From NCBI GenBank assembly GCA_030530875.1, contig JAUMUD010000002.1, positions 62,969 to 126,968 on the forward strand: a stretch of 64,000 nt of DNA, given 5' to 3'. The notes beneath the pieces were generated by a model, which ran no database searches, was not told the DNA's origin, and was given only the letters and a program-made list of their open reading frames with translations. This DNA comes from Corynebacterium sp. GTDB lineage: Bacteria > Actinomycetota > Actinomycetes > Mycobacteriales > Mycobacteriaceae. Each line of letters begins with the position of its first letter. Position 1 is the first letter of the stretch. The translations under genes and the position numbers were made by a program. Below, piece by piece: positions 8,111 to 48,899 of the stretch.

Positions 8111-8137
8111 AAAGGGAGCCAACAGGCTCTTTTTTTC
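8111..8137. terminator. Terminator after dtxR (bidirectional)
   Basis: AAAGGGAGCC-AACA-GGCTCTTTTTTT. Confidence 0.75.
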
Positions 8138-12845: not shown

Positions 12846-12907
12846 TTTTCAGGCTAACACTTTGATATAATCATGGTGATTATGCCCGTAAAACGATGGA
12901 GTCCATT

Positions 12908-13393
12908 ATGTCTGTTGTAGCAGCTCCTCTCAACGGAACTATCCTCGACCTTAAGGATGTTCCGGATCCAGTATTCGCTGCTGGGACTGTTGGTGATGGT
13001 CTTGCTATCAAACCCGCTGATAGCGCCACCCCAGTAACCGTTCTAGCACCAGTTAGTGGCACTGCCCTTCGCGTCATGCCACATGCTTTTGTCATTGCCG
13101 CACCTGAAGGCAATATTCTGGTTCACGTCGGAATCGACACTGTTCGTCTCCGCGGTGAGGGCTATGAGGTTCTTGCCACCCAGGGTGATGTCATCACGGC
13201 CGGCGACCCAGTTGTCCGCTTCGACCCTGAGGTAGTCAAGAACGCCGGCTACAGCCCACTGTGCGCCGTAGTTCTCATGGACTCCAAGAAGGGCGATATT
13301 ACTCAGCTCGCCGAGGGTGAGGTCAGGGCCGGGGATGAAATCTTCAAGATTACGACCCATGACCTTGAATTCTGCGCCGACTGCGATGACTAA
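12908..13393 (+). CDS. Stand-alone PTS EIIA component, glucose family (Crr-like)
   Basis: APLNGTILDLKDVPDPVFA..TVGDGLAI, PHAF, LVHVGIDTVRLRGEGY with the phospho-His retained. Confidence 0.88.
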   Translation: MSVVAAPLNGTILDLKDVPDPVFAAGTVGDGLAIKPADSATPVTVLAPVSGTALRVMPHAFVIAAPEGNILVHVGIDTVRLRGEGYEVLATQGDVITAGDPVVRFDPEVVKNAGYSPLCAVVLMDSKKGDITQLAEGEVRAGDEIFKITTHDLEFCADCDD

Positions 13394-22345: not shown

Positions 22346-22378
22346 TCTGGGCGCTACTACCCCGCAGCTTCTTCCATT

Positions 22379-22407
22379 TGGCCACAGTTCGCTGTGGCCA
22401 TTTTCTT
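22379..22407 (+). terminator. Terminator after lexA
   Basis: TGGCCACAG-TTCG-CTGTGGCCA-TTTTCTTT. Confidence 0.75.
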
Positions 22408-22908
22408 TGGGCTCACCCCCGAAATTCCGCGCAAAGTTTTCTTAGATTTGAGTGGTCCATTTCAGAAATTCTTATAAGATTTAAGGTTTCCTTAAGGAAT
22501 GAATCAAACAAGTGAGGCTTCAGGAACCCGAAACCATCGAACAACTTCGGTTCATTTTTAGGACAACAGCTGAGAAATGTTAGGAACATCACACTCGTAT
22601 TTAAAAAATTTTTCTTGAAAAATACAGACTTTTGAGACAAGGCGCTTTCTTGGTCTTTATTTTATCAATGCAGGTTAATGGGTGTTTTATGTGGATAACC
22701 TGAATCGATCAAGGAAAATTTTTATGTATAGAGTGAGTAACACCCATAACATTAACAACATTTCTATCATGACCTGCCGTTTCCAGGTTGACTTACTGGC
22801 TCCAACTCTTTAAGCTTTTTCTTAGTTAGAAACTCTAGCGGCGGTACTGCATGCAGTGCCACCACTTCTTAAATACTATTCAGAAACACAAGTTAAGAAA
22901 GGCACGCG

Positions 22909-23994
22909 ATGCGTAGTACACGACGTTTAATGTTGCATGGCCGCAAGGCCGTGGTCGCCGGTGCTCTTTGCTTGAGCGTAGCTGGCTCACTTAGCGCAAT
23001 CCCAGCAGCACATGCGGATACCACCACGACTACAGAAACCCAAGAGACTGATTATCAGCGAGATGTGAGGATCTTCAAGAACATCTACACTTCTGCTCAG
23101 AACCGTATTAAGGCTAATACCAAGCTGACTACGAGTGAGCAGGAAGACTGGCTGAAGTATCTGTCTGACGAGGCTAAGACCGCCTGTGCTCCAGCTCTGA
23201 TGACAGAGGATCTCGACCAGGCTGCACGCAATGAGCTCTCCCAGCAATGCCGCACCAAGGTCAATGCTGTTGATGCACTGATTCAGGCTAGTGCTGGCCT
23301 CTCTACTGAGAAGAATGCAGCCAAGGATGAGATTAACTCCCTGGCATATCTGACCGAAAAGCAGAAGGCTGATTATGACAGCGAGATCACCACTGCTGCT
23401 AAGAAGGTCGACCAGGATCAGCTCGTTTCCACCTCTGTTCCAGTGGACCTGAGCGATGTCCAGGTTGGTGTTATCTCTAATATTATGGAGAGCGCTCGCA
23501 CTGCCAACCTTGATGGCCTGAAGAACCTCTTCACCCAGTATGTCAGCTCTTATAGCACCCTCACCGATGCGGAGCGCAACGGCTACATCAACTGGGTTGG
23601 CATTATCACTGATAACACCGCTTCCACCATCAGCACCATTGAGGAGCGCTTTGCTGATGCAGCCCGCGCATACTTGGCCAGTGCTCAGAATGCCACTAAT
23701 ATCTCTGTGGCAATGACCAACATTGACAATATCCTCAAGACTGACAACCCTGGTACTGATAAGATCACCGAGATCAATGATGTTGTCACCCTGGCTGCAC
23801 CACTGAATCCATATTCCCGCGACCTTGAGTCTGGCCGTGGTACCCCACTGGATGAGGTTCCAGGTGAGGCCAGCACCAGCAGCAAGATTCCAACCTGGCT
23901 CTGGTACGTCATCGGTGCTGCGGGTATTGGTCTCATCGGTGCGATTGCTGGCGCCATTGGCTCCGCACTCCACCTGCTGCCAAACCAGCAATAA
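22909..23994 (+). CDS. Secreted surface protein with GA-module-like helical repeats and C-terminal membrane anchor
   Basis: Signal peptide ending AHA, repeats such as AAKDEINSLAYLTEKQKADYDSEI, hydrophobic C-terminus WYVIGAAGIGLIGAIAGAIG. GAAAGG RBS. Confidence 0.7.
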   Translation: MRSTRRLMLHGRKAVVAGALCLSVAGSLSAIPAAHADTTTTTETQETDYQRDVRIFKNIYTSAQNRIKANTKLTTSEQEDWLKYLSDEAKTACAPALMTEDLDQAARNELSQQCRTKVNAVDALIQASAGLSTEKNAAKDEINSLAYLTEKQKADYDSEITTAAKKVDQDQLVSTSVPVDLSDVQVGVISNIMESARTANLDGLKNLFTQYVSSYSTLTDAERNGYINWVGIITDNTASTISTIEERFADAARAYLASAQNATNISVAMTNIDNILKTDNPGTDKITEINDVVTLAAPLNPYSRDLESGRGTPLDEVPGEASTSSKIPTWLWYVIGAAGIGLIGAIAGAIGSALHLLPNQQ

Positions 23995-30881: not shown

Positions 30882-31151
30882 ATGGCTTCCAAGACTGTTA
30901 CCGTCGGCTCCACCGTTGGTCTCCACGCTCGTCCAGCCACCATCATCGCTGAGGCTGCTGGCGAGTACGATGAGGACATCTTCCTCACCCTCGTTGGCTC
31001 TGACGATGACGAAGAGACTGAGGCTGCCTCCTCCCTTATGATCATGGCTATGGGTGCTTCCCACGGCGACCAGATCACCGTCACCTCCGAGAACGCTGAG
31101 GCTGTTGAGAAGATCGCAGCTCTCATCGAGAAGAATCTCGACGAGGAGTAA
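30882..31151 (+). CDS. ptsH: Phosphocarrier protein HPr
   Basis: MASKTVTVGSTVGLHARPA (His15), AASSLMIM. Confidence 0.96.
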   Translation: MASKTVTVGSTVGLHARPATIIAEAAGEYDEDIFLTLVGSDDDEETEAASSLMIMAMGASHGDQITVTSENAEAVEKIAALIEKNLDEE

Positions 31152-31171
31152 TTCCAAGCATTTACTGCTTC

Positions 31172-31196
31172 AACCGGGCTTCGGCCCGGTTTTTTT
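31172..31196 (+). terminator. Terminator after ptsH
   Basis: AACCGGGC-TTCG-GCCCGGTT-TTTTT. Confidence 0.85.
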
Positions 31197-31323
31197 ATTC
31201 CCCAAGTCTTTTCGAAACTGCGTAACGGCCGTGCACTTAAGGCCCGCACAAAAGCCAAGCCCGCTACAGTACTTCCTCGTTCCAAAGTGAGATACACCAC
31301 AGTAGGGCAAAATTTTTTCTTTA

Positions 31324-31355
31324 TTAGTAAACTTTTTAGTAAAATCTTTAGTTAA
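31324..31355. promoter_or_regulatory. Candidate GalR operator upstream of permease/alpha-galactosidase
   Basis: Three TTAGTAAA-like repeats (TTAGTAAA, TTTTAGTAAAA, TTTAGTTAA); the same motif occurs upstream of galK. Confidence 0.6.
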
Positions 31356-31421
31356 GCAATTGGTTTTAATTTAGTTGCTGAAGCCTCTTTCTTCTTTTCT
31401 TATTACTAAGGAGTTAGCCCC

Positions 31422-33356
31422 ATGAGTACAACCACGGGCATTGCGACCGGCCAACATACGGGCGCAAATATGAAGGCGCGAATCTCTTATTCCATTGGCG
31501 CCTTTGGTAATGACGTCTTCTATGCCACGCTGTCGACGTACTTCATCATCTTCGTCACCTCCCACCTCTTTAATACCGGTGACACTGCTCATAACAACCG
31601 CATGGTTCTCTATGTCACGCAGATTATTGCGGCCGTGCGTATCCTTGAGCTAATCCTTGACCCATTCATCGGCAATCTGATTGATAACACCCGTACTCGC
31701 TGGGGCAAGTTCAAGCCGTGGATTGTGGTCGGCGGCATTGTTGGTTCCATCGCGCTGCTGGTGCTCTTCACCAACCTTGGTGGTCTTAATGAGAGCCACC
31801 CGGTTCTTTACCTGATTGTCTTCGCGATTATCTACATCATCATGGACATGTTCTATTCCTTCAAGGACATTTCCTTCTGGTCCATGGTGCCAGCCCTAAG
31901 CTTCAGCTCTGAGGAACGTGAAAAGACCGCTACCATGGCCCGTATTGGTTCCACCATTGGTGGCAACCTGGTCGGCGTTGTGGTTATGCCACTGGTGCTC
32001 TTCTTCTCCCTCAATAAGCACGATGGTGTGGGCGATAACCGTGGTTGGTTCATGTTCGCATTGATTGTGGCCCTGGTTGGTATCTTCACTGCCCTGGTTG
32101 TGGCCTTCGGCACCAAGGAAATTGACCATGAGATGCGCAAGAATACCCACAAGACTACCCTCAGGGGTGTATTCAAGGCGCTGATTAAGAATGACCAGCT
32201 CATGGCCATCTCGCTCTCCTATGTGCTCTACTGCACCGGCGCCACCATCATCAACGCCTCCCAGCTTTACTACTTCACCTACATTCTTGGTAATGCTGCT
32301 CAGTTCTCCATTCTGGGCACCATCAATATGCTCGTAGGCCTGATTTCGGTCTCCCTCTTCCCGAAGCTGGCTAGCAAGTTTAACCGCCGCAACCTCTTCT
32401 TCTACTGCATTGCAGTCATGGTTCTTGGTGTTGTGGTCTTCTTCTTCGCTGGCAAGTCCCTTGCCCTGGTCCTCATCGCTGCTGAGCTCTTCTTCATCCC
32501 TCAGCCACTGGTCTTCCTGGTTGTCCTCATGACCATCACTGACTGCGTGGAATATGGCCAGCTCAAGCTCGGCCACCGCGATGAATCCCTCACCCTCTCT
32601 GTCCGTCCAATGCTGGATAAGTTCGCTGGCGCTATCGGCAACCTCGTTATCGGTGCCGCTGCTGTGGCTGCTGGCATGACCACCGGCGCTACCGCTGAGA
32701 CTGTGACCAGCTCCGGTATCTGGTCCTTCAAGATCTACATCTTCCTCATCCCAGTCATCCTCATCCTGCTGGGTACCTTGGTATTCTTCTTCCGCGTGAA
32801 GCTCACCGAGGAACGCCATGCTGAAATTGTGGAAGAGCTTGAGCGCACCTGGGGTAAGGAAACTGCCTCCGAGGCTAGTGTTGCTGTGAGAACCAAGAAG
32901 CAGGAAATCCGCACCCCAATCCTTGGTTATCTCCACCCACTGAGCGATGTGAAGGATCCTGCCTTTGCGGCCGGTAAGCTTGGCCAGGGCTTTGCAATTA
33001 AGCCTCTCAATGGCAAGGTCTATGCCCCATTCTCTGGCACTGTCAAGGTCCTCTTCCCAACCAACCACGCCATTGGTATTGAGTCTGATGACGGTGTAGT
33101 TCTCCTCATCCACATTGGTCTTGGTACCACGAAGCTTAAGGGCGAAGGCTTTAGCACCTTTGTCGCCCAAGGTCAGCGTGTGGAAGCCGGCCAGAAGCTC
33201 ATCAAGTTTGATGAGGACTTCATTGAGGAAAGTGGCTTGGATAATACGGTCATTATGACTGTCACCAATGCCGATCAGTTCAGCACCATTCATATTGAGG
33301 GTGAGCCAGGTCGCCTGGTCACCATCGAGGATAATGTCTTGGAATTGGAGCGCTAA
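31422..33356 (+). CDS. lacS: LacS/RafP-type GPH-family galactoside:cation symporter with C-terminal EIIA-like domain
   Basis: ISYSIGAFGNDVFY, DPFIGNLIDNTRTRWGKFKPW, GHRDESLTLSVRP, then a IIA domain DPAFAAG.LGQGFAI, NHAIG, LIHIGLGT. Confidence 0.88.
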   Translation: MSTTTGIATGQHTGANMKARISYSIGAFGNDVFYATLSTYFIIFVTSHLFNTGDTAHNNRMVLYVTQIIAAVRILELILDPFIGNLIDNTRTRWGKFKPWIVVGGIVGSIALLVLFTNLGGLNESHPVLYLIVFAIIYIIMDMFYSFKDISFWSMVPALSFSSEEREKTATMARIGSTIGGNLVGVVVMPLVLFFSLNKHDGVGDNRGWFMFALIVALVGIFTALVVAFGTKEIDHEMRKNTHKTTLRGVFKALIKNDQLMAISLSYVLYCTGATIINASQLYYFTYILGNAAQFSILGTINMLVGLISVSLFPKLASKFNRRNLFFYCIAVMVLGVVVFFFAGKSLALVLIAAELFFIPQPLVFLVVLMTITDCVEYGQLKLGHRDESLTLSVRPMLDKFAGAIGNLVIGAAAVAAGMTTGATAETVTSSGIWSFKIYIFLIPVILILLGTLVFFFRVKLTEERHAEIVEELERTWGKETASEASVAVRTKKQEIRTPILGYLHPLSDVKDPAFAAGKLGQGFAIKPLNGKVYAPFSGTVKVLFPTNHAIGIESDDGVVLLIHIGLGTTKLKGEGFSTFVAQGQRVEAGQKLIKFDEDFIEESGLDNTVIMTVTNADQFSTIHIEGEPGRLVTIEDNVLELER

Positions 33357-35648
33357 ATGATTAGTGTACGTACAAGCTCTGCTGGAACCCCACAGTTCCA
33401 CCTGCACAATGAGCAGATCAGCTATATCTTTGGTCTCGCCGAAGACGGCAAGCTGCTCCACTACTACTTCGGTGCAGCTGTTCCTGATGCTGACTACCAG
33501 CACTTGGTGGAATATATCCCCTATCCTGTTTCCACCCTGCGACGTGAGGCCGATAGGCTCTACAGCCTGGCACGATGCATGCAGGAGCTACCGGAATATG
33601 GCGCCACAGATTTCCGCCACCCTGCTATTCAGGTGCGCCAGGAAAATGGTTCAACCTTGACCGATTTCATCTATGAGTCCCATGAGATTGTGCCGGGTAA
33701 GCCAAAGCTTGAGGGCCTTCCAGCAAGTTATGTGGAAGATGAGTCAGAAGCTGAAACCCTGATAGTGCATCTCGTCGATACGCTAAGTGGGGCAAAGGTC
33801 GCGCTGCTCTACAGCATTTATGCTGATAGGCCAGTGATTGCACGCAGTGCCATTGTGGAAAATCATGGGGCACAGACCCTGCACCTGGAAAATCTTGCTT
33901 CCTTTAATCTGGATTTGCCCGACCATAATTATGAGTGGGTACAGCTCAGTGGAGCTTGGGGTCGTGAACGCTATATTAAGCGCCGCTCTCTGGAGGCTGG
34001 AATTACCGCAGTGGATTCTACCCAGGGTTATTCCTCCCACCAGCAGAATCCCTTTGTGGCTCTGGTTCGCCCGGAGACCACGGAACATTCCGGTACGGCC
34101 ATTGGTCTAAGCTTCCTCTATTCGGGTAATTTCTTGGCTCAGGCTGAGGTGGATCCATGGAATGTAACCCGCCTGCAAATGGGCATTAACCCCTTTGGTT
34201 TTGACTGGGAGCTTAAGCCCGGCGCGCGCTTTACTGCCCCGGAAGCGGTACTGACCTATTCGGATGAGGGTCTCAATGGAATGAGTCAGGCTCTACATTC
34301 CTTGCTGCGTAACCGTGTGGCTCGTGGCCCATGGCGGAATAAGGAGCGCCCGATTCTCATTAATAACTGGGAAGCCACCTACTTCGACTTTACGGAGGAC
34401 AAGCTGGTTTCTATTGCCAAAACTGCCAAGGACGTGGGTGTTGAGCTCTTCGTTCTGGATGATGGCTGGTTTGGTCAGCGTACGAGTGATACTGCTGGTT
34501 TGGGCGATTGGTATACCAATACGGATCGCCTGCCGGGTGGTATTGGCTCCTTGGCGGCGAAGATTCGTGACCTGGGTATGAAATTTGGTCTGTGGTTTGA
34601 GCCGGAAATGGTGAATCGGGATAGTGATATGTTCCGTAATCACCCTGAATGGACCATTCAGACCCCTGGGCGTCCGCTGCGTCATGGTCGCCATCAGTTT
34701 GTGCTCAACTACGCTATCCCTGCTGTTGTGGATAACATTTTTGAGCAGATGTGCGCCATTATTGATGAGGCGAAGCTGGATTATATTAAGTGGGATATGA
34801 ATCGCCCGCTGACCGATGTTTTCTGTGCTGAGCTTCCGGCCAGCCAGCAGGGTGAGGTCTTCCACCGCTTTGTGCTTGGGCTTTATGACCTGTATGAGCG
34901 TCTCCTTGAGCGTTATCCTAATTTGCTCATTGAGTCCTGTGCTTCTGGTGGTGGCCGTTTTGATGCGGGCCTGCTCTACTATGCCCCTCAGGCTTGGACC
35001 AGTGATGATACGGATGCCATTGAGCGTATGAAGATTCAGTATGGTACGAGTCTTGCTTACCCAATTTCTAGCATGGGTGCCCATGTTTCTATTGTTCCGA
35101 ACCATCAGACCCGCCGTATCTCACCTTTGGCTACCCGTGCCCATGTGGCCTATTTCGGTGCCTTTGGCTATGAGCTTGACCTCAATGACCTTAGCCAGGA
35201 TGAGATCAATCAGGTTAAGGAGCAGATTGCTTTTTATAAGCAGTACCGCCACCTTATTCATGAGGGTACTTTCTATCGCCTGAAGTCGCCTTTTGAGAGC
35301 GGTCAGGAAGTGGCGTGGATGGTCGTGGATAAGAACAAGGAACAAGCAGTGGTTGCGCACTTTACGGTGCTCAATAAGGTCAATGCGGCCTTTAATCGCC
35401 TGCTGCTTAAGGGCCTTGACCCCAACGCCACCTATACCCTGCAGGAAGCACCGGATAATGCCCTGCGCAACCCGCAGGAAAATGGCGTGACCTATCCGAA
35501 TGTGCCAACTTATTCCGGCGCGGCGCTGATGAATATGGGCATTAGCACCATGGACTCCTCCTGCGGTGAGATGCTCCCACAAAACCGTGACAGGGACCTT
35601 CCAAGTACTGATTTCCAATCGCGGATCTGGGTACTGAAAAAGAAGTAA
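33357..35648 (+). CDS. aga: Alpha-galactosidase, GH36
   Basis: LINNWEATYFDF, LFVLDDGWFG, KFGLWFEPEMV, YIKWDMNR, SCASGGGRFD, WTSDDTDA. Confidence 0.95.
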   Translation: MISVRTSSAGTPQFHLHNEQISYIFGLAEDGKLLHYYFGAAVPDADYQHLVEYIPYPVSTLRREADRLYSLARCMQELPEYGATDFRHPAIQVRQENGSTLTDFIYESHEIVPGKPKLEGLPASYVEDESEAETLIVHLVDTLSGAKVALLYSIYADRPVIARSAIVENHGAQTLHLENLASFNLDLPDHNYEWVQLSGAWGRERYIKRRSLEAGITAVDSTQGYSSHQQNPFVALVRPETTEHSGTAIGLSFLYSGNFLAQAEVDPWNVTRLQMGINPFGFDWELKPGARFTAPEAVLTYSDEGLNGMSQALHSLLRNRVARGPWRNKERPILINNWEATYFDFTEDKLVSIAKTAKDVGVELFVLDDGWFGQRTSDTAGLGDWYTNTDRLPGGIGSLAAKIRDLGMKFGLWFEPEMVNRDSDMFRNHPEWTIQTPGRPLRHGRHQFVLNYAIPAVVDNIFEQMCAIIDEAKLDYIKWDMNRPLTDVFCAELPASQQGEVFHRFVLGLYDLYERLLERYPNLLIESCASGGGRFDAGLLYYAPQAWTSDDTDAIERMKIQYGTSLAYPISSMGAHVSIVPNHQTRRISPLATRAHVAYFGAFGYELDLNDLSQDEINQVKEQIAFYKQYRHLIHEGTFYRLKSPFESGQEVAWMVVDKNKEQAVVAHFTVLNKVNAAFNRLLLKGLDPNATYTLQEAPDNALRNPQENGVTYPNVPTYSGAALMNMGISTMDSSCGEMLPQNRDRDLPSTDFQSRIWVLKKK

Positions 35649-35656
35649 GTAAGATT

Positions 35657-35687
35657 AGGGCTGGGTGGAATATACCAGCCCTTTTTT
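35657..35687 (+). terminator. Terminator after aga
   Basis: AGGGCTGG...CCAGCCCT-TTTTT. Confidence 0.75.
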
Positions 35688-35724
35688 GCTTGTATAATCA
35701 CGCCAGTGAAGGAAGAGGTATCAC

Positions 35725-36723
35725 GTGCCAACTATTAAAGATATTGCGGCCAAGGCAAAGGTGTCTGTGGCAACTGTCTCTCGTGTGCTCAATAATGATG
35801 AGACCATGTCGGCCACGCAGGAAACCCGCGATAAGATTTTTGCCATCGCTGATGAGCTGGGTTATACCAAACATAAGCGGAATAATCAGGTGACTAATCG
35901 CTCACTGGCCATTATTCAGTGGTTCAGTGAAGCTGAGGAAACCGATGACCTGTACTACTACTCCATCCGTATCGGCATTGAGCGTAAAGCCCAGGAACTT
36001 GGCTATGAGATTATCCGCATCTTCAACAATGACCCCATCGACCCAATTGAAAAGGTCGATGCCGTCATCGCCGTGGGTAAATACAGCTCTGCCCAAATCC
36101 TCCATTTCAGCCGCCTCAATCCTGTCATCTTCTTTGTGGATAGCGACACGCTGGAACAAGGCTTTACCTGCATCACCACGGACTTTAGCCATGCTGTGGT
36201 TGAAGTCCTCGACCACTTCATCCACAAAGGCCACCGCCATATTGGCATGATTACTGGCAGTGAGCGCACTAGCGACCAAACCGAAGAACTTGAAGACCCC
36301 CGCATTCAGACCTTCACCTACTACCTGGAACAGCGCGGCCTCTTCAACGCTAACTATGTCTACACCGGCGTATTCTCCACCCAAAGTGGCTACGAACTTA
36401 TGAAGGAAGCCCTGGAAGAACACGGGGACGACCTCCCCGATGCGTTCTTTATTGCCAGCGATGCCCTCGCCGTCGGTGCCCTGCGCGCCCTGCAGGAAGC
36501 CGGCAAGAATGTGCCCGAAGATGTCAGCATCATTTCCTTCAATGACACAGCCATTGCGAAACAGGTCTTCCCACCTCTGTCTTCCGTATCCGTCTTTACA
36601 GAAGAAATGGGTGCCCGCGCAGTCTCCGAAGCACACGCCTACCTCGAGCACGCCATCCCTGATGTCCCCTACCTCATTCGCCTCGGAACCCACCTTACCC
36701 TGCGTAAATCTAGCAAGAACTAA
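35725..36723 (+). CDS. galR: LacI-family galactose repressor GalR
   Basis: TIKDIAAKAKVSVATVSRVLN HTH, DLYYYSIRIGIE (streptococcal GalR-like), sugar-binding domain. TATAAT upstream. Confidence 0.88.
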   Translation: MPTIKDIAAKAKVSVATVSRVLNNDETMSATQETRDKIFAIADELGYTKHKRNNQVTNRSLAIIQWFSEAEETDDLYYYSIRIGIERKAQELGYEIIRIFNNDPIDPIEKVDAVIAVGKYSSAQILHFSRLNPVIFFVDSDTLEQGFTCITTDFSHAVVEVLDHFIHKGHRHIGMITGSERTSDQTEELEDPRIQTFTYYLEQRGLFNANYVYTGVFSTQSGYELMKEALEEHGDDLPDAFFIASDALAVGALRALQEAGKNVPEDVSIISFNDTAIAKQVFPPLSSVSVFTEEMGARAVSEAHAYLEHAIPDVPYLIRLGTHLTLRKSSKN

Positions 36724-36725
36724 AC

Positions 36726-36770
36726 TTTAGTAAAATTTTACTTGAAAAGTTTACTAAAATATTTTATGCT
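36726..36770 (+). promoter_or_regulatory. galK promoter and overlapping GalR operator
   Basis: -35 TTGAAA (36742-36747), 17 nt spacer, -10 TATGCT (36765-36770). Perfect palindrome AGTAAAATTTTACT (36729-36742) plus TTTACTAAA (36750-36758). Confidence 0.75.
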
Positions 36771-36776
36771 TGAGCT

Positions 36777-37943
36777 ATGAATACCACACAGCTCCATAGT
36801 TCTTTTGCTTCTATCTTTGGCTACGAACCCGAAGCCTCTTTCTTCTCCCCTGGCCGAATCAACCTCATCGGCGAGTACACCGACTTCAACGGTGGCCATG
36901 TCTTCCCTGCTGCTATCAGCTTGGGCACCTGGGGTGCTGCTAAGGCCAGGGAGGATAATCTCCTCCGCTTCTACTCGGCGAACTTTAGCGATGATGGCAT
37001 CATCGAAGTTGACCTTGCTGACCTAAGTTTTAAGACGGAACATGGCTGGGCCAACTACGCCAAGGGCGTTCTTCTCTTCCTGCAGGAAGCAGGCCATAAG
37101 CTTCCTCATGGCTTTGACCTCTTCATTGAGGGCACCATCCCTAATGGTGCGGGCCTCTCCTCCTCTGCCTCCCTGGAATTGCTCATTGGCATTGTGGCCG
37201 AAAAGCTCTTTGACCTGAAACTTGAGCGCCTTGACCTGATTAAAATTGGCAAGCTCACGGAAAATAAGTACATTGGCGTGAACTCCGGCATTATGGACCA
37301 GTTCGCCATTGGCATGGGTGCGGAAAAGCGCGCCATCTACCTGGATACCAATACCTTGGAATATGAGCTGGTTCCTCTGGACCTCGGCGATAATGTCATT
37401 GTCATTATGAACACCAATAAGCGCCGTGAACTGGCCGATTCCAAGTACAATGAGCGCCGCGCGGAATGTGAAAGCGCACTGGCTGATCTGCAAAAGGGCA
37501 TCAATATTGCCACCCTCGGTGACCTCGATGAAGCCACCCTCGATCAGTATGCCTATCTCATTAACGGCCATAACTGCCTCAAGCGTGCCCGCCATGCCGT
37601 GTGGGAAAACCGCCGCGTGGAACGCGCCACCACTGCCCTTCGTGCTGGTGAACTGGCCGAATTTGGCCGCCTGGTCAATGCCTCCCATGTATCCCTTGAG
37701 CATGACTTTGAAGTCACAGGCAAGGAACTGGACACCCTGGTCCACGCCGCCTGGGCGCAGGATGGTGTGGTTGGTGCCCGCATGACTGGTGCCGGTTTCG
37801 GCGGCTGCGCCATTGCCATTGTCAACAAGGATAAGGTTGAAGCATTCACCAAGGCCGTCACCGAGATCTACACCAAAGAGATCGGCTACGCCCCAAGCTT
37901 CTACCCGGCCGAAATTGCCGATGGTGCACGCGCACTGGACTGA
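36777..37943 (+). CDS. galK: Galactokinase
   Basis: [45 protein letters not shown]. The signature reads GEYTDFN instead of GEHTDYN. Confidence 0.95.
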
Positions 37944-38003
37944 CACACGCACCAAATAACACACACAACACCTCACACCCCATAGTCATTCCAAGGATCA
38001 AGC

Positions 38004-39491
38004 ATGAAACGTGTTGATGCACTGGCCAGCGCTATTATCGCGCAGAGCGACTATACCGAGCTGGATCGAATCTACCTCCGTAACCGCCTCTTCGCCCTCA
38101 TCGGTGAGGACACTGGCAATGCGGAAACCCAGGAAACTGAACTCATCCCATTGGTCCATGAGCTTGGCCCCGATGAGATTCTCACCAGTGCCGTGATGGA
38201 CTTCATCACCCCACCACCGCACGTGGTCAATGCCCAGTTCTGGAATGACTATGCGGTTGATCCGCAGAAAGCAATCAGCAATTTCTACTCTCTCAATTGC
38301 CGCAATGACTACATCAAGCTTGGAGATATTGCGCGCAATATTGAGTTCACCGCCCCATCCGACTACGGCGATATTGAAATCACTATCAATCTCTCCAAGC
38401 CGGAAAAAGACCCCAAGGCCATCGCTGCTGCTAAGAACGCACCTCAAAGCGACTACCCTCTCTGCCAGCTGTGCATGGAAAACGAGGGCTACGCTGGCCG
38501 TGTCAACCACCCGGCCCGTGCCCAGCACCGCATCATTCGCGTCGAGCTCGACGATGAAAACAAGAAAAATAGCAAAACTAACACCACCTGGAAGCACACA
38601 TGGGGCTTCCAGTATTCCCCCTATGCTTATTTCAATGAGCACTGCATTTTCCTCGATGCTGAACACAGCCCGATGGAAATCACCACGCAGACTTTCCGCG
38701 AGCTCCTGCAGCTAGTTGATCTTTTCCCCGGCTACTTCGCGGGCTCCAATTCTGATCTTCCGATTGTGGGTGGTTCCATTCTTAGCCATAACCACTATCA
38801 GGGTGGCCGCCACATATTCCCAATGGATAAGGCCAGTACGGAGTACGAATTCACACTCAAGGGTGTGAAGGCCGAAATCCTTAAGTGGCCAATGAGTGTT
38901 ATCCGGCTCCGCAGCGATGATCCGCACGCACTAATAGAAGCTGCTGAGCACGTTGCGGAAAGTTGGAAGACTCATAGCGATGAAACCGTCGATGTCATCG
39001 CAAACAGCAATGGCACCCGCCACCATACGGTCACGCCTATTGCCCGCAAGGATGGCGATGCGTATATCCTCAACCTGGTTCTTCGTGATAATCACACCAG
39101 CGAAGAGCACCCTGATGGTGTCTTCCATCCACACAAGGATGTGCAGCATATTAAGAAGGAAAATATTGGTCTCATTGAGGTCATGGGCCTGGCTATTCTG
39201 CCACCGCGCCTCAAGGAAGAGATGGCTGCAGTCGAGCGCTATCTGCAGGACACCACTGCGGATGAGCAGGCAGCAATTCGCACCAGTGGCATTGCTGAAT
39301 ACCACCTTGAATGGGCGAGAAATATCAAAGCCGCAAACCCCCAGCGTGCTATAATTGACACATCTGCGCTGGTAAAAGAAGAAATCGGCCACGTATTTGT
39401 CCGAGTTCTTGAAGATGCCGGCGTTTTTAAGTGCGATGAGCAAGGCCGCGCAGCCTTCCACCGCTTCCTCAACCTGATTGGAGAATCATAA
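38004..39491 (+). CDS. galT: Galactose-1-phosphate uridylyltransferase, Firmicute (class II) type
   Basis: [76 protein letters not shown]. Confidence 0.95.
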
Positions 39492-40483
39492 TGGCTATCC
39501 TCGTCCTGGGTGGTGCCGGATATATCGGCTCCCATATGGTGGATTATCTCGTTAATAAGACGGATGAGGAGGTCATTGTTGTCGATAACCTGGTCACCGG
39601 GCACCGTGCCGCCGTGCACCCTGATGCCACCTTCTATGAGGGCGATGTGGCCGACCAGGACTTCATGCGTGGAGTCTTCAAGGCGCATGATATTGATGCG
39701 GTCATTCACTTCGCGGCCTACAGCCTTGTGGCTGAGTCCATGGAAAAGCCACTGAAGTATTTTGATAATAATACTGCCGGTATGGTGAAGCTTCTTGAGG
39801 TCATGAATGAGGCCGGTGTGAAGAATATTGTCTTCTCCTCCACGGCTGCTACATATGGTATTCCGGAAGAGATGCCAATCCGTGAGACCACCCCACAGAA
39901 GCCAATTAACCCTTATGGTGAGTCCAAGCTCATGATGGAGACCATCATGAAGTGGGCTGATAAGGCCTATGGGATTCACTATGTGCCACTGCGTTACTTC
40001 AATGTGGCTGGTGCTAAGCCGGACGGTTCCATTGGTGAGGACCACAATCCGGAAACCCACCTGCTGCCAATTGTTCTTCAGGTGGCTGCAGGCAAGCGCG
40101 AAAAGATCTTCATTTTCGGCAATGACTACAACACCCCGGATGGCACCAATGTGCGCGACTATGTGCACCCATTTGACCTTGCCAGCGCCCATATGAAGGC
40201 CGTGGAATACCTGCGTAAGGGTAACCCTTCCACCGCCTTTAACCTTGGTTCGGCCAATGGCTTCTCCAATTTGGAAATTGTGGAGGCTGCCCGCAAGGTG
40301 ACCGGCCACCCAATCCCTGCTGAGCTCTCCGATCGCCGCCCTGGCGACCCAGATACCCTCATTGCCTGCTCTGATAAGGCCCGTGAGGTGCTCGGTTGGA
40401 CCCCTGAGTTCGACACCATGGAGAAAATTATCGCCACTGCTTGGGCATGGCATTCCAGCCACCCAGACGGCTTTAATGACTAA
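39491..40483 (+). CDS. galE: UDP-glucose 4-epimerase
   Basis: [34 protein letters not shown] (YxxxK), [19 protein letters not shown] overlap with galT. Confidence 0.96.
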
Positions 40484-40499
40484 TAAGCACAGAAAGGTC

Positions 40500-40532
40500 G
40501 AACCCGAGGACTCGAAGTCTTCGGGTTCTTTT
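40500..40532. terminator. Terminator after galE (bidirectional)
   Basis: GAACCCGAGGACT-CGA-AGTCTTCGGGTTC-TTTT. Confidence 0.8.
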
Positions 40533-40543
40533 AGTCTTCCACT

Positions 40544-40966
40544 CTATGCGTAATCCGGCTTGCTGTGAAGCATACTCAAAAAGCGCTGCTCAATATCGGG
40601 TCGGTTTGGAATGAGCTGCTGGAAGATATGCAATAGATGTTGGCCATAGACGGCGGTGATGCCAGCATCGGCAACCCAGATATAGACATCCTCCCAGAGG
40701 TCAATGGCGGCATCGTACCACTCGCCAAAGAGATCCACGGCATCCATGCCTTCGATGGGAAGGGCGCGCCAGGCTTTGGTGGGAATGCCTGCCTGGGCAA
40801 GAGCCGTATTGAGCTCATTGGAGTAGTGCACCACATGATCCAAATGCTGCTTGGTGGCAGCATCAAAGGCCCGCGCATTATCGCGGGCGAGGAGAGTCTG
40901 CACTTGGGCGTTATAAGCCTTGAGGGAGCCCGCAAGGAGCTTCATGAGAGCTTTGTGATCCGACAT
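40544..40966 (-). CDS. Hypothetical all-helical protein, possibly ferritin-like four-helix bundle
   Basis: 140 aa ORF, 19 nt downstream of the previous minus-strand gene; amphipathic helices. Fold is inference only. Confidence 0.6.
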   Translation of the reverse strand: MSDHKALMKLLAGSLKAYNAQVQTLLARDNARAFDAATKQHLDHVVHYSNELNTALAQAGIPTKAWRALPIEGMDAVDLFGEWYDAAIDLWEDVYIWVADAGITAVYGQHLLHIFQQLIPNRPDIEQRFLSMLHSKPDYA

Positions 40967-40985
40967 AGCTCAAGTGTAAACGCTT

Positions 40986-41465
40986 TTAGAGCTCGAAGTA
41001 TTCGGGCAGCTTTGCTGTGCCCCCAAGATGGAAGAGGCGAATGAGCGGGCGGGTGCGCAGCGCACGGGTATCAGTTACGGCCGCATCATAGAAGCGGTGC
41101 GTGAGTAGCACGCGGGCCTGGGCTTCGGCGAGAGGTGCCGGAATATTTTTATCCAAGGCGGTGCTAGAGGCGGTGAGGCCAGGAACGGAATCGAGAAGTT
41201 CGCGTTCCTTTTGGATGCGGGCATCAAAGTTTTGGTATTCCAGGCCCACTGCTTCCGCAGCACGAGCCTTGGAGGCAAGTTCCGGGTGGAGTGTAGCAAT
41301 TACTGCCCCGCGGCGATTCAGTGCGGCCTCAAGGGAGGCGCGGGCAGCATCCGTGCGAATATGCAGGCGATGAAGACGCTGGGCAGTAAAATACGCCCAC
41401 AGGATAATGACCACTGCCAGGGCCACAGCGAGCACAATCCATAAGACAGCAGCGGTGGGTAGCAT
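40986..41465 (-). CDS. Membrane-anchored LemA-like protein (resembles N-terminal domain of Rv2609c)
   Basis: N-terminal TM, then TAQRLHRLHIRTDAARASLEAALNRR, RFYDAAVTDTRALR, LGGTAKLPEYFE. Confidence 0.7.
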   Translation of the reverse strand: MLPTAAVLWIVLAVALAVVIILWAYFTAQRLHRLHIRTDAARASLEAALNRRGAVIATLHPELASKARAAEAVGLEYQNFDARIQKERELLDSVPGLTASSTALDKNIPAPLAEAQARVLLTHRFYDAAVTDTRALRTRPLIRLFHLGGTAKLPEYFEL

Positions 41466-41499: not shown

Positions 41500-42774
41500 T
41501 TACTTGCGACCCTCACCAACAGTTTCGAAGAGCTTCTTCATGATTGGGTAAATGATAATCACACCAATACTACCCCATGCAATGCCCTGAAGCTGAAGGG
41601 AGCCAACATTGAGGGTGAGGTTACCGATGCCGGCAATAAGAGCAACGGCAGCGGCAGTAAGGTTCACTGGATTGGTGAAGTCCACCTTATTTTCCTGCCA
41701 GATGCGAATACCCAGCATACCAATCAGGCCGTAGAGCACGATAGTGGCGCCACCGAGCACGCCATTAGGAATAGTAAGAACCAGCGCACCAAACTTAGGC
41801 ACAAAGGCAAGCAGAATAGCGCAGGCAGCAGCAACCCAATAGGCCGCGGTGGAATAGACCTTGGTAGCAGCCATCACACCAATATTTTCAGCATAGGTGG
41901 TGGTACCGGAACCACCGAAACCACCGGCGAGGGTGGTAGCGAGGCCGTCGGCAAGCAGAGCGTCGCCGGCGAGATCATCAAGGTTGCGCTTGGTCATATT
42001 AGACACAGCCTTAACGTGGCCAACATTTTCCGCAATGAGAACAATAATGACAGGAATGGTAATGAATACCACGTTGAGGTGCATGGATGGGTGGTGGAAC
42101 TGTGGGAGACCAATCCAGGCAGCGGAGTTAATGGTTTCGCGGGTGCCCTCAGGAACATTGCCGGTCAGAGCAGCGAAAATCCAGCCCACAATCACACCGA
42201 TAAGAATGGAGAGGCGGTTAATCATGCCGCGACCAATCACGGTGCAGAGAATAATCACAAGAAGGGTGACACCAGCAACCAGTGGCTGCTTTTGGAAATC
42301 AGAGGTGGCCGCACCAGCAAGGTTAAGACCAATGAAAGCAACAATGGCACCGGAAACCACGGGTGGCAGAACCGCATCAAGGACGCGTCGGCCAGCAATT
42401 TTAACAATAATACCGACAATCAAAAGCGCAATACCGGCAGCCAACACACCACCGACCTGAGCATTAATACCCTGCGCCTGAGAGGCCGTGAGAGGCGCAA
42501 TGAAGGCGAAGGAGGAGCCCAGATAGGAGGGGAGGCGGTTGCGGGTAATGAGCAGGAAGAGAATCGTGCCGATACCGGAGAACAGCAGCGTGGTATTAAC
42601 CGGGAATCCGGTCAAGGTAGGCACAAGAAGGGTCGCACCAAACATTGCTACAACATGCTGTAGACCAATGCCAATGGTGCGACCCCAACTCAGTCGTTCT
42701 TCTGGTGCAACAACGGCACCAGGTTTAATGTGTTTGCCGTCACCGTGGACGGTCCATCCCCAAGAATTACTCAT
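41500..42774 (-). CDS. uraA: Uracil/xanthine permease (NCS2 family)
   Basis: QHVVAMFGAT, PSYLGSSFAFI, AENVGHVKAV, TTYAENIGV. Confidence 0.92.
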   Translation of the reverse strand: MSNSWGWTVHGDGKHIKPGAVVAPEERLSWGRTIGIGLQHVVAMFGATLLVPTLTGFPVNTTLLFSGIGTILFLLITRNRLPSYLGSSFAFIAPLTASQAQGINAQVGGVLAAGIALLIVGIIVKIAGRRVLDAVLPPVVSGAIVAFIGLNLAGAATSDFQKQPLVAGVTLLVIILCTVIGRGMINRLSILIGVIVGWIFAALTGNVPEGTRETINSAAWIGLPQFHHPSMHLNVVFITIPVIIVLIAENVGHVKAVSNMTKRNLDDLAGDALLADGLATTLAGGFGGSGTTTYAENIGVMAATKVYSTAAYWVAAACAILLAFVPKFGALVLTIPNGVLGGATIVLYGLIGMLGIRIWQENKVDFTNPVNLTAAAVALIAGIGNLTLNVGSLQLQGIAWGSIGVIIIYPIMKKLFETVGEGRK

Positions 42775-42785
42775 GACCCCCAATA

Positions 42786-44546: not shown

Positions 44547-46499
44547 TTAGAACCAAATCTTGAGAACATTGAAGACAATAACGGCAAGAACCCAGGCGAT
44601 GCCCAACTGAATAATCACACCCATAGCTGTCCACTTGCCGCCAATCTCACGGCGCTGGGCACCGAGGGTGGCCACGCACGGGGTGTAGGCGAGCAGGAAG
44701 ATCATGAAAGCCCAGACAGCGGCAATGGTGTGATCATTGGAAGCTGCGGCGAAATCCTGACGGACATTCTGGGCCAGTGGGCTCTCAGCCTGGGTCGTGG
44801 AATCATCATCGGTCACATCATCCACAGCATAGGTCTGTGCCCAGGAGGAAATCACGGCCTCCTTGGCCACAAAGCCGGTAATCAGGGTGCCGGTCAGCGT
44901 GCCCTTGCCAAAACCTGCTGGCTCGAAGACTGGGGCGATGGTTTCAGAAATGCGACCGTAGACGGAATCCTCAAATGGCATATCCTCATCGGCGAAGCCA
45001 TAGCCGCTAACCACTGGGACGGACTGAAGGATGAAGACTGCGGCCACGGTGACAACAATGATGCCACCGGCGGTCTGCAGGAAGCCCTTGAGGCGAACCC
45101 ACATAACGGAGAGCGCAAGGCGTGGGCCAGGAACCTGGTAGATAGGAAGGTCAATAACCAGTGGCTCAAAGCCAGCGTGACGCCACAGGGTGGCGCGCAT
45201 GAGCAGACCGGCAATAATGACCATGGCCACGGAAATCACATACATGGCAAAGACCACGGTACCGGCGTGTCCTGGGAAGAAGGTGGCCGAAAGCATCACG
45301 AACACGGTCAGACGGGCCGAGCAGGAAGTAAATGGAATCAGAAGGGCTGTGAGCAGACGGTGCTGTGGCTTGCCCAGCACACGGGTCGAGGAAATAGCTG
45401 GCACATTGCAGCCAAAGCCCACAATCAGTGGGATAAAGGCCTTACCAGGAAGACCGATGGTCTTCATCAGACGATCAGTCACCACTGCCGCGCGGGCCAT
45501 ATAGCCGGAATCCTCCAGGAAGGCCAGGCACAGGAACATCAGCGCCATCAGTGGGGCGAAGGTCAAAACCGTACCCACACCGCCAATGAGGCCATCAACA
45601 ATCAGACCCTTCAAAATGGCATGGTCACCAATCAGACCAGCCACAAAATCTGAAATTGGGCCGCTAAAGAGATTATCCAACCCATCCTGGAATGGCTTAG
45701 CCACAGTGGTCGTAATCTGGAAGACAATCCACATCACAAATAGGAAGAGAAAAGGACCAAGCACTGGATGCAGTGCGAAACGGTCAATCTTCTCTGTGAG
45801 GGTGGCCTTTGGCGGCTCCACATGATGTACGGAGGCCTCAATGCCACGCTCAACCCAGTCAAAGCGGGAATCAGCAATGGCCACATCATCATTGGCTTGC
45901 TCCCCGTGGGCGCGGGCACGACGGCGGCGTGGCTCGGTGCCAAGCTGCTCAATCACAGTCTCACCCACAACCTTGAGGTTACTGCGGTGACGTGGGTCAA
46001 CAATCACAACAGGGGCGTTGATGAAGGCCGAAAGTGCCTCAGCATCAATTTCCTTGCCCTGGCTGCGCGCCACATCGGCCTTGGTAATCACCACAACCAT
46101 GCGGAAGCGGCTCTCGGCCAACTGCGCAACCATGTAGAGCGAGCGGCTAATCGAGGCCGCATCGACCGCGACCATGACCAGGTCCGGGCGCTCTTCTACC
46201 CCACAATCAATCACAAGATCGCGGGTGAGCTGCTCATCCGGGCTCACTGGGTCCAGGGAATAAGCACCTGGGAAGTCAATGACGTCAAATTCACGCTCCC
46301 CAACATTCCATGCACCGCGGGACACGGCCACGGTGGTGCCTGGCCAGTTACCCATGGCTGCCTTTGCGCCGGTCAGACCATTAAAAAGCGTGGATTTACC
46401 AGCATTTGGCGCGCCAACCAGGGCAATAACTGGGGAACCCGGCTTCGCCTGCTTGGTTTTAGTTTCGCAATGACAGGTTGTCGTCGCTGCCTTGGCCAT
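44547..46499 (-). CDS. feoB: Ferrous iron transporter FeoB
   Basis: GAPNAGKSTLFN, GNWPGTTV, DFPGAYSL, LEDSGYMARAA, GFGCNVPA, PFTSCSAR, LAYTPCVAT. Confidence 0.96.
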   Translation of the reverse strand: MAKAATTTCHCETKTKQAKPGSPVIALVGAPNAGKSTLFNGLTGAKAAMGNWPGTTVAVSRGAWNVGEREFDVIDFPGAYSLDPVSPDEQLTRDLVIDCGVEERPDLVMVAVDAASISRSLYMVAQLAESRFRMVVVITKADVARSQGKEIDAEALSAFINAPVVIVDPRHRSNLKVVGETVIEQLGTEPRRRRARAHGEQANDDVAIADSRFDWVERGIEASVHHVEPPKATLTEKIDRFALHPVLGPFLFLFVMWIVFQITTTVAKPFQDGLDNLFSGPISDFVAGLIGDHAILKGLIVDGLIGGVGTVLTFAPLMALMFLCLAFLEDSGYMARAAVVTDRLMKTIGLPGKAFIPLIVGFGCNVPAISSTRVLGKPQHRLLTALLIPFTSCSARLTVFVMLSATFFPGHAGTVVFAMYVISVAMVIIAGLLMRATLWRHAGFEPLVIDLPIYQVPGPRLALSVMWVRLKGFLQTAGGIIVVTVAAVFILQSVPVVSGYGFADEDMPFEDSVYGRISETIAPVFEPAGFGKGTLTGTLITGFVAKEAVISSWAQTYAVDDVTDDDSTTQAESPLAQNVRQDFAAASNDHTIAAVWAFMIFLLAYTPCVATLGAQRREIGGKWTAMGVIIQLGIAWVLAVIVFNVLKIWF

Positions 46500-47907: not shown

Positions 47908-48795
47908 CTACCCCGCCAATATCTCTTCACGCAGGATTCGTAGGAATTCTACGGCCAGAGGGCTGAGACTGCCGTGGCTTTTCCACATGAGACTGGCGCG
48001 TAATTCCACCCGTGGCTCACAAGGAATAAAGCGCAGCGCGGGGTCCATATTGGGAAGATTCTCCAGCGCCAGGGCAATGCCAAGACCCGCATGAATTAGG
48101 GCATAGACATTGCCAATGAGGTTATACTGCGCGGCAATAGTGAAGTCCTCAATGGGCTTATGCAGCCATCCAATGAGGCCACCGTGCTGTTCCACTTCCT
48201 GTGAAGAGATAATAAGCGGATAGTCTTCCAGGTCCTTACTTTTAATCGCCCTTTTCTTTGCAAGAGGGTGATTGGCTGGGATAATGACTCCCCACCGGTC
48301 GCTATGATTCACATCCAGATTCTGATAGCGCTGCGCATTTGTCGCCCCAAGCATGAAGCCAAAGTCGAGGGTGCCATTATCCAGCCCCTCATAGATCTGT
48401 GAGGCATTAGCACTTATTATGTGGCAGCGCACCGCGGGATGAAGCACGCGCATTCGCGTAACTGCGCGGGCAATTATGTCAAAACCTGCGCTTTCACCAG
48501 CACCAATGCTAAGTACCCCAGCAAGACTTTCCTCAGCAGCACGAAAATCTTCGAGAGTTCTATCCACCAGGCCCGCAATATCAATAGCCCTGCGATAAAG
48601 TTGTCTTCCTTGGGTTGTCAGTTCTAGGCCCTTGGCCCGATTACCACGGATAAAGAGTTCCACGCCCAGTTCTTTTTCAAGTTCTTTAATCTGCCGGGAA
48701 AGAGCCGGCTGACTAATTCCAAGAGTCCAGGCCGCGTCAATGAAGCTCCCCTCGGAACACACAGCAAGAAAGCCGCGCAGCTGCTTAATCTCCAT
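47908..48795 (-). CDS. LysR-family transcriptional regulator
   Basis: MEIKQLRGFLAVCSEGSFIDAA..ISQPALSRQIKELEKELGVELF. GGGAGG RBS. Confidence 0.93.
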   Translation of the reverse strand: MEIKQLRGFLAVCSEGSFIDAAWTLGISQPALSRQIKELEKELGVELFIRGNRAKGLELTTQGRQLYRRAIDIAGLVDRTLEDFRAAEESLAGVLSIGAGESAGFDIIARAVTRMRVLHPAVRCHIISANASQIYEGLDNGTLDFGFMLGATNAQRYQNLDVNHSDRWGVIIPANHPLAKKRAIKSKDLEDYPLIISSQEVEQHGGLIGWLHKPIEDFTIAAQYNLIGNVYALIHAGLGIALALENLPNMDPALRFIPCEPRVELRASLMWKSHGSLSPLAVEFLRILREEILAG

Positions 48796-48899
48796 GGCAA
48801 CCTCCCAAAGAAGACCCATCATTTACATAACTTATTTGCATGTAATCATATACCAGTTTCTTCTTTGATATAAGCGCTGGCCGCTGCAAGAATGAAGCC

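Follow-up and report, generated by a model that had tools for sequence, protein, structure and literature searches.

The window analysed here, 64,000 nucleotides of the chromosome of a Corynebacterium sp. (assembly GCA_030530875.1, contig JAUMUD010000002.1), contains six plus-strand genes, lacS, aga, galR, galK, galT, and galE, lying between ptsH and uraA. A preliminary description made from the sequence alone had named these six genes and both flanks, and the open reading frames (ORFs) of the window, assigned by comparison with the curated profiles of NCBIfam and Pfam, confirm them. The six genes very probably form a 9.2-kb island for the utilisation of galactose and of alpha-galactosides of the melibiose/raffinose type, gained horizontally from Lactobacillales before at least two Corynebacterium species diverged, and since domesticated. 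The second of these species is represented by a metagenome-assembled genome (GCA_030530985.1, hereafter the sister MAG).

Genes of the island

The first gene, lacS (31422-33356; 644 aa), encodes a GPH:cation symporter (TIGR00792, 497 bits against a cut-off of 231) with a C-terminally fused domain resembling IIA-Glc of the phosphotransferase system (PTS; PF00358/TIGR00830 EIIA_1, residues 495-619). Both histidines of this domain, in the motifs PTNHAIG and LIHIGLG, align to those of Bacillus subtilis IIA-Glc (1AX3). The LacS and RafP permeases of lactic acid bacteria (LAB), such as Streptococcus thermophilus LacS and Pediococcus pentosaceus RafP/LacS, have the same GPH carrier and C-terminal IIA domain with both histidines. 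Unlike them, the island lacS is paired with an alpha-galactosidase gene rather than with lacZ, and it lies directly downstream of a corynebacterial ptsH. Elsewhere in the window, a stand-alone ORF of 165 aa (12896-13393), downstream of a Hel308-like helicase gene, encodes a PTS EIIA-Glc-like protein that shares 38% identity with the LacS IIA domain.

The second gene, aga (33357-35648; 763 aa), begins at the base that follows the lacS stop codon. It encodes a GH36 alpha-galactosidase of the melibiase/raffinase type, in which all three GH36 domains (Glyco_hydro_36N, PF16875; Melibiase, PF02065; and 36C, PF16874) score above the Pfam cut-off. Residues 8-696 of 763 align to AgaB/AgaA of Geobacillus (4FNQ, 4FNR; E = 6e-249), and the motifs KWDMNR and SCASGGGRFD are retained in the alignment to 4FNQ. 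We take the aspartate pair of the KWD and SCxxGGGRxD motifs to be the nucleophile and the acid/base of Aga. The three-domain architecture and the aspartate motifs are shared with the tetrameric GH36 enzymes AgaA/AgaB of Geobacillus stearothermophilus and MelA of Lactobacillus acidophilus and L. brevis (2XN0, 3MI6). The island enzyme differs from these in its moderate identity to them and in a C-terminal extension of about 65 residues past the aligned part.

galR (35725-36723; 332 aa) encodes a LacI-family regulator of the streptococcal GalR type (PF00356, PF13377) with a conserved recognition helix. It contains DLYYYSIR, one of the peptides quoted in the preliminary description, all of which are present in the sequence. 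galK (36777-37943; 388 aa) encodes a probable galactokinase (NF003705, 635 bits; cut-off 385) that keeps the ATP-binding motif PNGAGLSSS and the motif GIMDQ. The next gene, galT (38004-39491; 495 aa; PF01087, PF02744), finds its best NCBIfam models in class II galT throughout, and the active-site motif SHNHYQGG is retained in its product. galE (39491-40483; 330 aa) encodes a UDP-glucose 4-epimerase of the streptococcal type (TIGR01179, 430 bits against a cut-off of 262) with the NAD motif GGAGYIGSH and the catalytic YGESK; its start codon shares one base with the galT stop codon, the last base of the latter. As described earlier, the profile annotation of the ORFs found neither galM nor a beta-galactosidase gene in the cluster.

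Stem-loops in the region point to three transcription units, which are likely lacS-aga, galR, and galK-galT-galE. Upstream of lacS, a terminator scan detected an intrinsic terminator of ptsH (31172-31191, plus strand). Its stem-loop is identical in the sister MAG and is the last element common to the two genomes before an island-specific upstream region. A second stem-loop (35658-35687, plus strand), GGGCTGG...CCAGCCC followed by TTTTTT, was read by eye and is absent from the automatic scan; it is probably the terminator of the lacS-aga unit. The strong intrinsic terminator of galK-galT-galE (40500-40528, plus strand), with a 13-bp stem containing seven G-C pairs and a T-run, marks the right end of the island.

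Insertion site in the host chromosome

The genes on both sides of the island are corynebacterial. HflX, encoded in the right flank, is 96% identical to that of the sister MAG and 81-83% identical to those of C. gerontici, C. pseudopelargi, C. pelargi, C. kutscheri, C. mustelae, C. ulcerans, and C. diphtheriae, which makes the host a Corynebacterium without a close relative among named species. The left flank carries the core genes sigB, dtxR, oxyR, hrpA, lexA, a DeoR regulator gene, ptsI, fruR, fruK, fruA, and ptsH; the right flank carries uraA, hflX, dapF, miaA, and a miaB-like gene. The arrangement ptsI-fruR-fruK-fruA-ptsH on one side and uraA-hflX on the other is syntenic with named corynebacteria. 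The adjoining genes are ptsH (30882-31151, plus strand), assigned from its sequence and from the PTS-HPr genes at the equivalent position in the sister MAG and in relatives, and uraA (41500-42783, minus strand; NF007995, PF00860). Next to uraA lies a gene for a 159-aa hypothetical protein of the host (40986-41465, minus strand), whose homologue likewise adjoins uraA in the sister MAG (155 aa) and in a further corynebacterial lineage, L092 (153 aa).

Inspection of the ptsH-uraA locus in relatives, a check proposed in the preliminary description, revealed an empty site in three of them: in C. gerontici, C. pseudopelargi, and C. kutscheri, ptsH and uraA are convergent direct neighbours, 75-190 bp apart. 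In agreement with this, blastn homology between the window and relatives (L083-L086) ends at 31152-31155, the end of ptsH, and restarts at about 41540-41614, within the 3' end of uraA. The gap holds other inserts elsewhere. C. ulcerans has a different three-gene insert, and L092 (HflX 88% identical) has an unrelated gene beyond the small hypothetical gene adjoining uraA. The differing inserts of C. ulcerans, L092, and the window indicate that the ptsH-uraA gap is a variable spot. L092 had been considered as a third and possibly closer carrier of the island, and was rejected on account of the unrelated gene beyond its homologue of the 159-aa protein.

The claim that no mobility genes flank the island held up: profiles run on the flanking ORFs and a transfer RNA (tRNA) search found no transposase, integrase, or tRNA gene within about 10 kb of it. 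Nor were integration scars or direct repeats seen at the boundaries beyond short repeats at chance level. The window contains no match to an Rfam family.

Distribution of the island

Among about 5.8 billion proteins, only two exceed 60% identity to the window GalT: GalT itself and one protein, 76% identical, from a MAG of Corynebacterium sp. In a scan of 185,579 species (one genome each) with peptide patterns from the window GalT, which very divergent corynebacterial copies could escape, the sole other corynebacterial locus was that of S11A_Sa_2_sub (GCA_030530985.1), the sister MAG. The remaining top loci belong to Streptococcus, to a few Ligilactobacillus, and to one contig labelled Oribacterium. 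The gal cluster of this contig (L005, Oribacterium sp. MAG label) groups tightly with those of S. orisratti and S. ratti, an indication of mis-binning or of recent transfer. The preliminary description considered alpha-galactoside use unusual for model corynebacteria; with one other corynebacterial carrier found, the cluster is rare rather than widespread. We found no description of a Corynebacterium cluster for alpha-galactosidase, the Leloir route, or lacS in the searchable literature, the one candidate preprint dealing with S. infantarius only. As to the gut or oral niche suggested earlier, sequencing runs were listed for neither the island nor the host core, and no searchable paper names the accessions or isolates of the sister MAG or the Logan run.

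The sister MAG carries all six genes in identical order at the identical locus, in the arrangement fruK-fruA-ptsH, island, 155-aa ORF, uraA-hflX-feoB. Genes flanking the island are 82-89% identical in DNA and 86-96% identical in protein between the two genomes, and the island proteins are 92% (LacS), 90% (Aga), 89% (GalK), 90% (GalE), 80% (GalR), and 76% (GalT) identical. Divergence of both the flanks and the island shows that the MAG represents a different Corynebacterium species. The simplest reading of these sequences is that a single acquisition preceded the split of the two species. In addition, an independent Logan contig carries an identical GalT.

Amelioration and selection

GC content at third codon positions (GC3) is 0.55-0.67 in the island and 0.51-0.71 in the flanking host genes. 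The homologous genes have values of 0.29-0.33 in S. equinus and 0.43-0.51 in S. sanguinis. Codon fractions do not set the island genes apart from the flanking host genes, so the adaptation of codons to the host that had been described earlier is borne out by this comparison. Such host-like composition fits complete amelioration. Only two AT-rich remnants are left, the galR-galK spacer and the region upstream of lacS.

These features bear on whether the island might be an artefact of streptococcal contamination, chimeric assembly, or faulty binning. GalE is up to 85% identical across phyla and one of the two carriers is a MAG, as such an error would have it, but GC3 and codon usage are host-like and strongly unlike those of streptococcal genes. 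In each of two independent assemblies, from different species, the island also runs on unbroken into host genes at both ends. Moreover, outside the two corynebacterial genomes no protein exceeds 60-63% identity for GalT or Aga, and the Logan contig provides an identical GalT. An artefact is effectively refuted by these observations.

Between the window and the sister MAG, the ratio of nonsynonymous to synonymous divergence (dN/dS) is 0.045-0.092 for lacS, aga, galK, galT, and galE, compared with 0.055-0.125 for flanking core genes. Low ratios of this kind indicate purifying selection on at least these five genes in both species; no ratio was computable for galR, in which synonymous divergence (dS) is saturated. 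The transfer had been called old and domesticated, and the shared locus in a second species, the host-like GC3, and the low dN/dS all support this. dS is uneven along the island. For lacS and galE it is about 0.72-0.77, similar to the flanks (0.48-0.76), while for aga, galK, and galT it reaches 1.2-1.7, which, together with the saturated galR, exceeds the island ends and the flanks. GalT and GalR are also the most diverged island proteins between the two species. The unevenness may reflect recombination with another allele of the island, or relaxed or adaptive change.

Ancestry of the genes

Comparison with 79 Firmicute gal loci gave identities to streptococcal proteins of 80-85% for GalE and 69-74% for GalK, while GalT, for which database searches were also used, reaches about 53-60% and GalR 50-60%. 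The earlier statement that these proteins closely follow streptococcal sequences is apt for GalE and GalK and generous for GalT and GalR. GalE identities between the window and streptococci (0.75-0.85) fall inside the range found among streptococci (0.76-0.99), and those of GalK and GalT lie slightly under the corresponding ranges. In neighbour-joining (NJ) trees (100 bootstraps, with taxa picked as best matches and Ligilactobacillus as the only outgroup), the window and sister MAG copies of GalE, GalK, GalT, and GalR always pair (100%). The pair falls within the streptococcal radiation, and the clade of Streptococcus and Corynebacterium is supported at 100% against Ligilactobacillus. Its sister species is unstable, with 65-79% support and a partner that varies from gene to gene. 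We propose that galR-galK-galT-galE, along with the operator DNA described below, came from within the genus Streptococcus.

LacS and Aga have other affinities. The best matches of Aga, at 61-63% identity, come from Enterococcus, Loigolactobacillus coryniformis, Streptococcus sp. oral taxon 056, S. sanguinis, Paenibacillus, and Amphibacillus; the named proteins among its best 120 matches are all from Bacillota, with none from Actinomycetota. Among representatives clustered at 50% identity, the nearest full-length relative of LacS is from P. pentosaceus (56%), and the next is only 39% identical. Within the 79 loci, the best values for LacS are 50-56%, all from Ligilactobacillus, and Aga does not exceed 45%. 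lacS-aga would accordingly derive from a source among LAB or other Bacilli that is not nameable more precisely. An origin of streptococcal or LAB type, as first proposed, is upheld for galE, galK, galT, and galR, which nest in Streptococcus, while lacS-aga is of LAB/Bacilli type and not specifically streptococcal. Phylogeny, suggested earlier as a check, revealed Firmicute affinity of the four gal proteins, and database matches did so for LacS and Aga.

The six-gene order lacS-aga-galR-galK-galT-galE was not found in any sampled Firmicute, and the three closest named homologues of Aga adjoin genes for an AraC-type regulator and a plain MFS transporter, without lacS or gal genes. The absence of a donor with this layout and the split affinities of the genes indicate that the island is a mosaic, put together either by a donor outside the sample or, in two steps, within the recipient. 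In the latter case a gal block from Streptococcus and a lacS-aga block from another LAB, of Lactobacillaceae or Enterococcaceae type, would have been joined at the ptsH-uraA hot spot in Corynebacterium. Two such steps are a serious possibility, if somewhat short of an even chance. None of the 79 gal loci holds a close match to LacS or Aga, the closest relatives of Aga are scattered over genera beside AraC/MFS genes rather than lacS or gal genes, a terminator lies between aga and galR, and the ptsH-uraA gap has received other inserts in C. ulcerans and L092. On the other hand, both blocks occur together in both species with similar divergence, and TTAGTAAA boxes in both promoter regions of the window genome fit a single regulon. 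An unsampled donor with the layout is plausible too, for some LAB link alpha-galactosidase and gal genes. Lactococcus raffinolactis has aga-galK-galT with galR, and Lactiplantibacillus plantarum has melA-rafP beside gal genes. Compared with the island by description, such superclusters likewise link a GH36 enzyme and a LacS/RafP permease to Leloir genes under a LacI-type GalR; their gene order and content differ.

The opposite polarity, with the cluster as an ancestral trait of Actinomycetota or Corynebacterium that underwent repeated loss, or with a transfer from Corynebacterium to Firmicutes, is contradicted by several lines of evidence and is very improbable. Host-like composition would agree with it, as would the GalT of Bifidobacterium angulatum (54%), which scores near the streptococcal ones. 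However, the cluster has two corynebacterial carriers against hundreds of streptococcal species, three relatives show clean empty sites, and the operator/promoter DNA is AT-rich and streptococcal in style. The corynebacterial pair is moreover nested in, not basal to, the streptococci, and so is the Bifidobacterium GalT.

The B. angulatum protein was observed in 43 contigs. It is 54% identical to the window GalT, and its position nested among streptococcal GalTs in the NJ tree raises the possibility that class II galT entered Actinomycetota repeatedly.

Promoters and operators

The galR-galK spacer (36724-36776, plus strand) is 53 bp long with 21% GC, which agrees with the earlier remark that the operators stay AT-rich. 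It contains a perfect palindrome, AGTAAAATTTTACT (36729-36742), a -35-like TTGAAA (36742-36747), a box, TTTACTAAAA (36750-36759), and a -10-like TATGCT (36765-36770), all on the plus strand. Between the window and the sister MAG, 51 of 56 bases of the spacer are identical, compared with 73-86% for coding DNA and 73-82% for the part of it next to the spacer. The layout of boxes around the -35 element is common to the regions upstream of galK in S. sanguinis, S. porci, and salivarius-like loci, and a tandem-box version occurs upstream of galK in S. ratti, S. orisratti, and S. equinus. The conservation of this streptococcal-type operator suggests that the regulator and its operator were transferred and retained together.

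Upstream of lacS, two or three tandem TTAGTAAA boxes resembling GalR operators (31324-31356, plus strand; repeat family D11, inverted repeat I1) have the 12-nt spacing of the galK promoters of S. ratti and S. orisratti. Of five TTAGTAAA octamers in all, four sit in the two island promoter regions, against an expectation of 1.2 for the whole window. A fixed-spacing pattern, TTTTACTNNAAAAGTTTACTAA, matched the galK site only; the lacS boxes, being differently spaced, were found only by half-site counting. The region upstream of lacS in the sister MAG (L002 3013-3266) contains no GalR-like boxes. It is alignable with that of the window only at the ptsH terminator and the ribosome-binding site. 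Since the boxes are present in the window copy only, regulation of lacS-aga may differ between the two species.

The streptococcal Leloir operon, as found in S. mutans, S. thermophilus/salivarius, S. sanguinis, and the S. equinus group, is the closest comparison for this part of the island. It shares galR, the order galK-galT-galE, a GalT best matched by class II models, and the TTAGTAAA/TTTACTAA boxes around the galK -35. The island differs from it in lacking galM, in its host-level GC3, in a GEYTDF signature in GalK, and in its actinobacterial host. The orientation of galR differs as well: it lies upstream of galK and co-directional with it in the window, whereas the two genes are divergent in sampled streptococci where they adjoin. 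GalR is a repressor in S. mutans and an activator in S. thermophilus.

GalK signature and native galE

Both corynebacterial copies of GalK carry GEYTDF in the galactose-binding signature (canonically GRxNLIGEHTDY), in contrast to GEHTDY in every streptococcal and Ligilactobacillus copy displayed. The changes, histidine to tyrosine and tyrosine to phenylalanine, lie within 36852-36887 of the window (residues 26-37). The histidine presumably corresponds to a sugar-contacting residue of galactokinases, and we take the equivalent human change, H44Y, to be a disease allele. Substrate or efficiency of the island GalK may therefore differ. Conservation of the altered signature in both species and a galK dN/dS of 0.055 between them argue that the enzyme is functional but possibly altered.

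The left part of the window contains sigB (6325-7326) and dtxR (7392-8075). C. diphtheriae has an uninterrupted sigB-dtxR-galE series, according to a passage in PMC4105308 citing Oram et al. 2006. In the window, galE is absent after dtxR; 60 bp beyond dtxR lies instead an ORF encoding a DUF4192 protein (8136-9260, minus strand), and a PAC2 gene comes next. There is no second galE within the 64-kb window, where the island galE is the sole copy. An independent Logan contig (L093) has the same sigB-dtxR layout without galE.

Corynebacterial arabinogalactan requires UDP-galactose. The island might have been kept mainly because its galE supplies this precursor in place of a native gene, with sugar catabolism being secondary, although we consider this rather unlikely. 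In its favour, the dtxR-linked galE is missing from both the window and the Logan contig, and GalE is the island protein best conserved relative to streptococci (85%), with 90% identity between the two corynebacterial species. Against it, dN/dS is equally low across the island genes, which indicates selection on the whole pathway, and third place in a galactose-regulated operon is odd for an essential housekeeping gene. The view is also limited to 64 kb, and a native galE may lie elsewhere in the genome. A more elaborate version, which we put forward only tentatively and regard as doubtful, is that the streptococcal-type galE displaced the dtxR-linked gene and would now feed UDP-galactose into arabinogalactan synthesis, thereby locking the island in place, with the GalK signature change perhaps marking, in parallel, a shift of the kinase in specificity or kinetics in its new host. 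If the native galE is truly gone, this would be a xenologous replacement, in which a Firmicute gene serves an essential actinobacterial envelope pathway.

Other lineage-specific features of the window

Between the galK-galT-galE terminator and the gene of the 159-aa protein lies a 140-aa ORF (40544-40966, minus strand) that is present only in the window. It has no Pfam, NCBIfam, or PHROG match and no tblastn match in the sister MAG, and its membership in the island is uncertain. In the region 40544-40989, the 26 nt ending at the start of this ORF are 81% complementary to 36754-36779, which ends at the galK start (repeat I3), and both start regions read ...CTTGAGCTATG. The shared stretch may be a duplicated 5' region or due to chance.

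In the region 22346-23994, which separates lexA from the sugR-like DeoR gene, a predicted surface protein of 361 aa is encoded. Its features are a signal peptide, a weak match to a GA (albumin-binding) module (31 bits), and a C-terminal membrane anchor; a 563-bp stretch of 40% GC precedes its gene. GA modules are typical of Firmicutes. No gene lies between lexA and the DeoR gene in C. gerontici, C. pseudopelargi, and C. kutscheri, so the gene of the 361-aa protein is another lineage-specific insertion.

The segment 44126-50745, between hflX and dapF, has no DNA homology in four named relatives. It includes a small ORF, feoB (44547-46499), feoA, a 251-aa ORF, and a LysR regulator gene (47908-48822), among others. 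This block is common to the sister MAG at least up to the LysR gene (FeoB 86%, LysR 66% identical).

Discussion

An old transfer from Lactobacillales followed by domestication accounts best for the island, and several observations weigh against this reading or against parts of it. GalT scores 641 bits against the class II profile TIGR01239, under its cut-off of 650.15, and is likewise below the cut-offs of the other class II models. The ancestry of the gal genes was read from NJ trees of taxa picked as best matches, with a single outgroup genus, the changing partner of the corynebacterial pair blurs the identity of the donor, and the rarity of the cluster depends on GalT patterns that divergent copies could escape. 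The unmatched gene order and the neighbours of the closest Aga homologues make a single transfer less certain. To these may be added the high dS of the central genes, the box-free region upstream of lacS in the sister MAG, and the altered GalK signature.

The genes suggest the following pathway. LacS would import an alpha-galactoside or galactose by cation symport or exchange. Host HPr, encoded immediately upstream, could phosphorylate the IIA domain of LacS and so couple transport to the status of the PTS; tuning of transport by HPr phosphorylation is described for S. thermophilus LacS. In the cytoplasm, Aga would release galactose, which GalK, class II GalT, and GalE would convert to glucose-1-phosphate by the Leloir route for entry into glycolysis. 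GalR is proposed to bind the AT-rich TTAGTAAA/TTTACTAA boxes over the galK promoter, and here also the lacS promoter, making expression responsive to galactose.

All six gene families are known, as is the transfer of sugar operons, and the island is a clean but fairly ordinary example of an old cross-phylum transfer. Its value lies in that clarity: enzymes, regulator, and AT-rich operator crossed together from Bacillota to Actinomycetota, and the coding DNA has since been recoded to host codons while the regulatory DNA has stayed frozen. The set may be of use as naturally host-adapted genes for engineering corynebacteria to grow on the alpha-galactosides of soy or molasses. To our knowledge, C. 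glutamicum does not grow on melibiose, raffinose, or galactose. For the two species that carry the island, growth on these three sugars is the predicted phenotype, and it would be a rare one in the genus.

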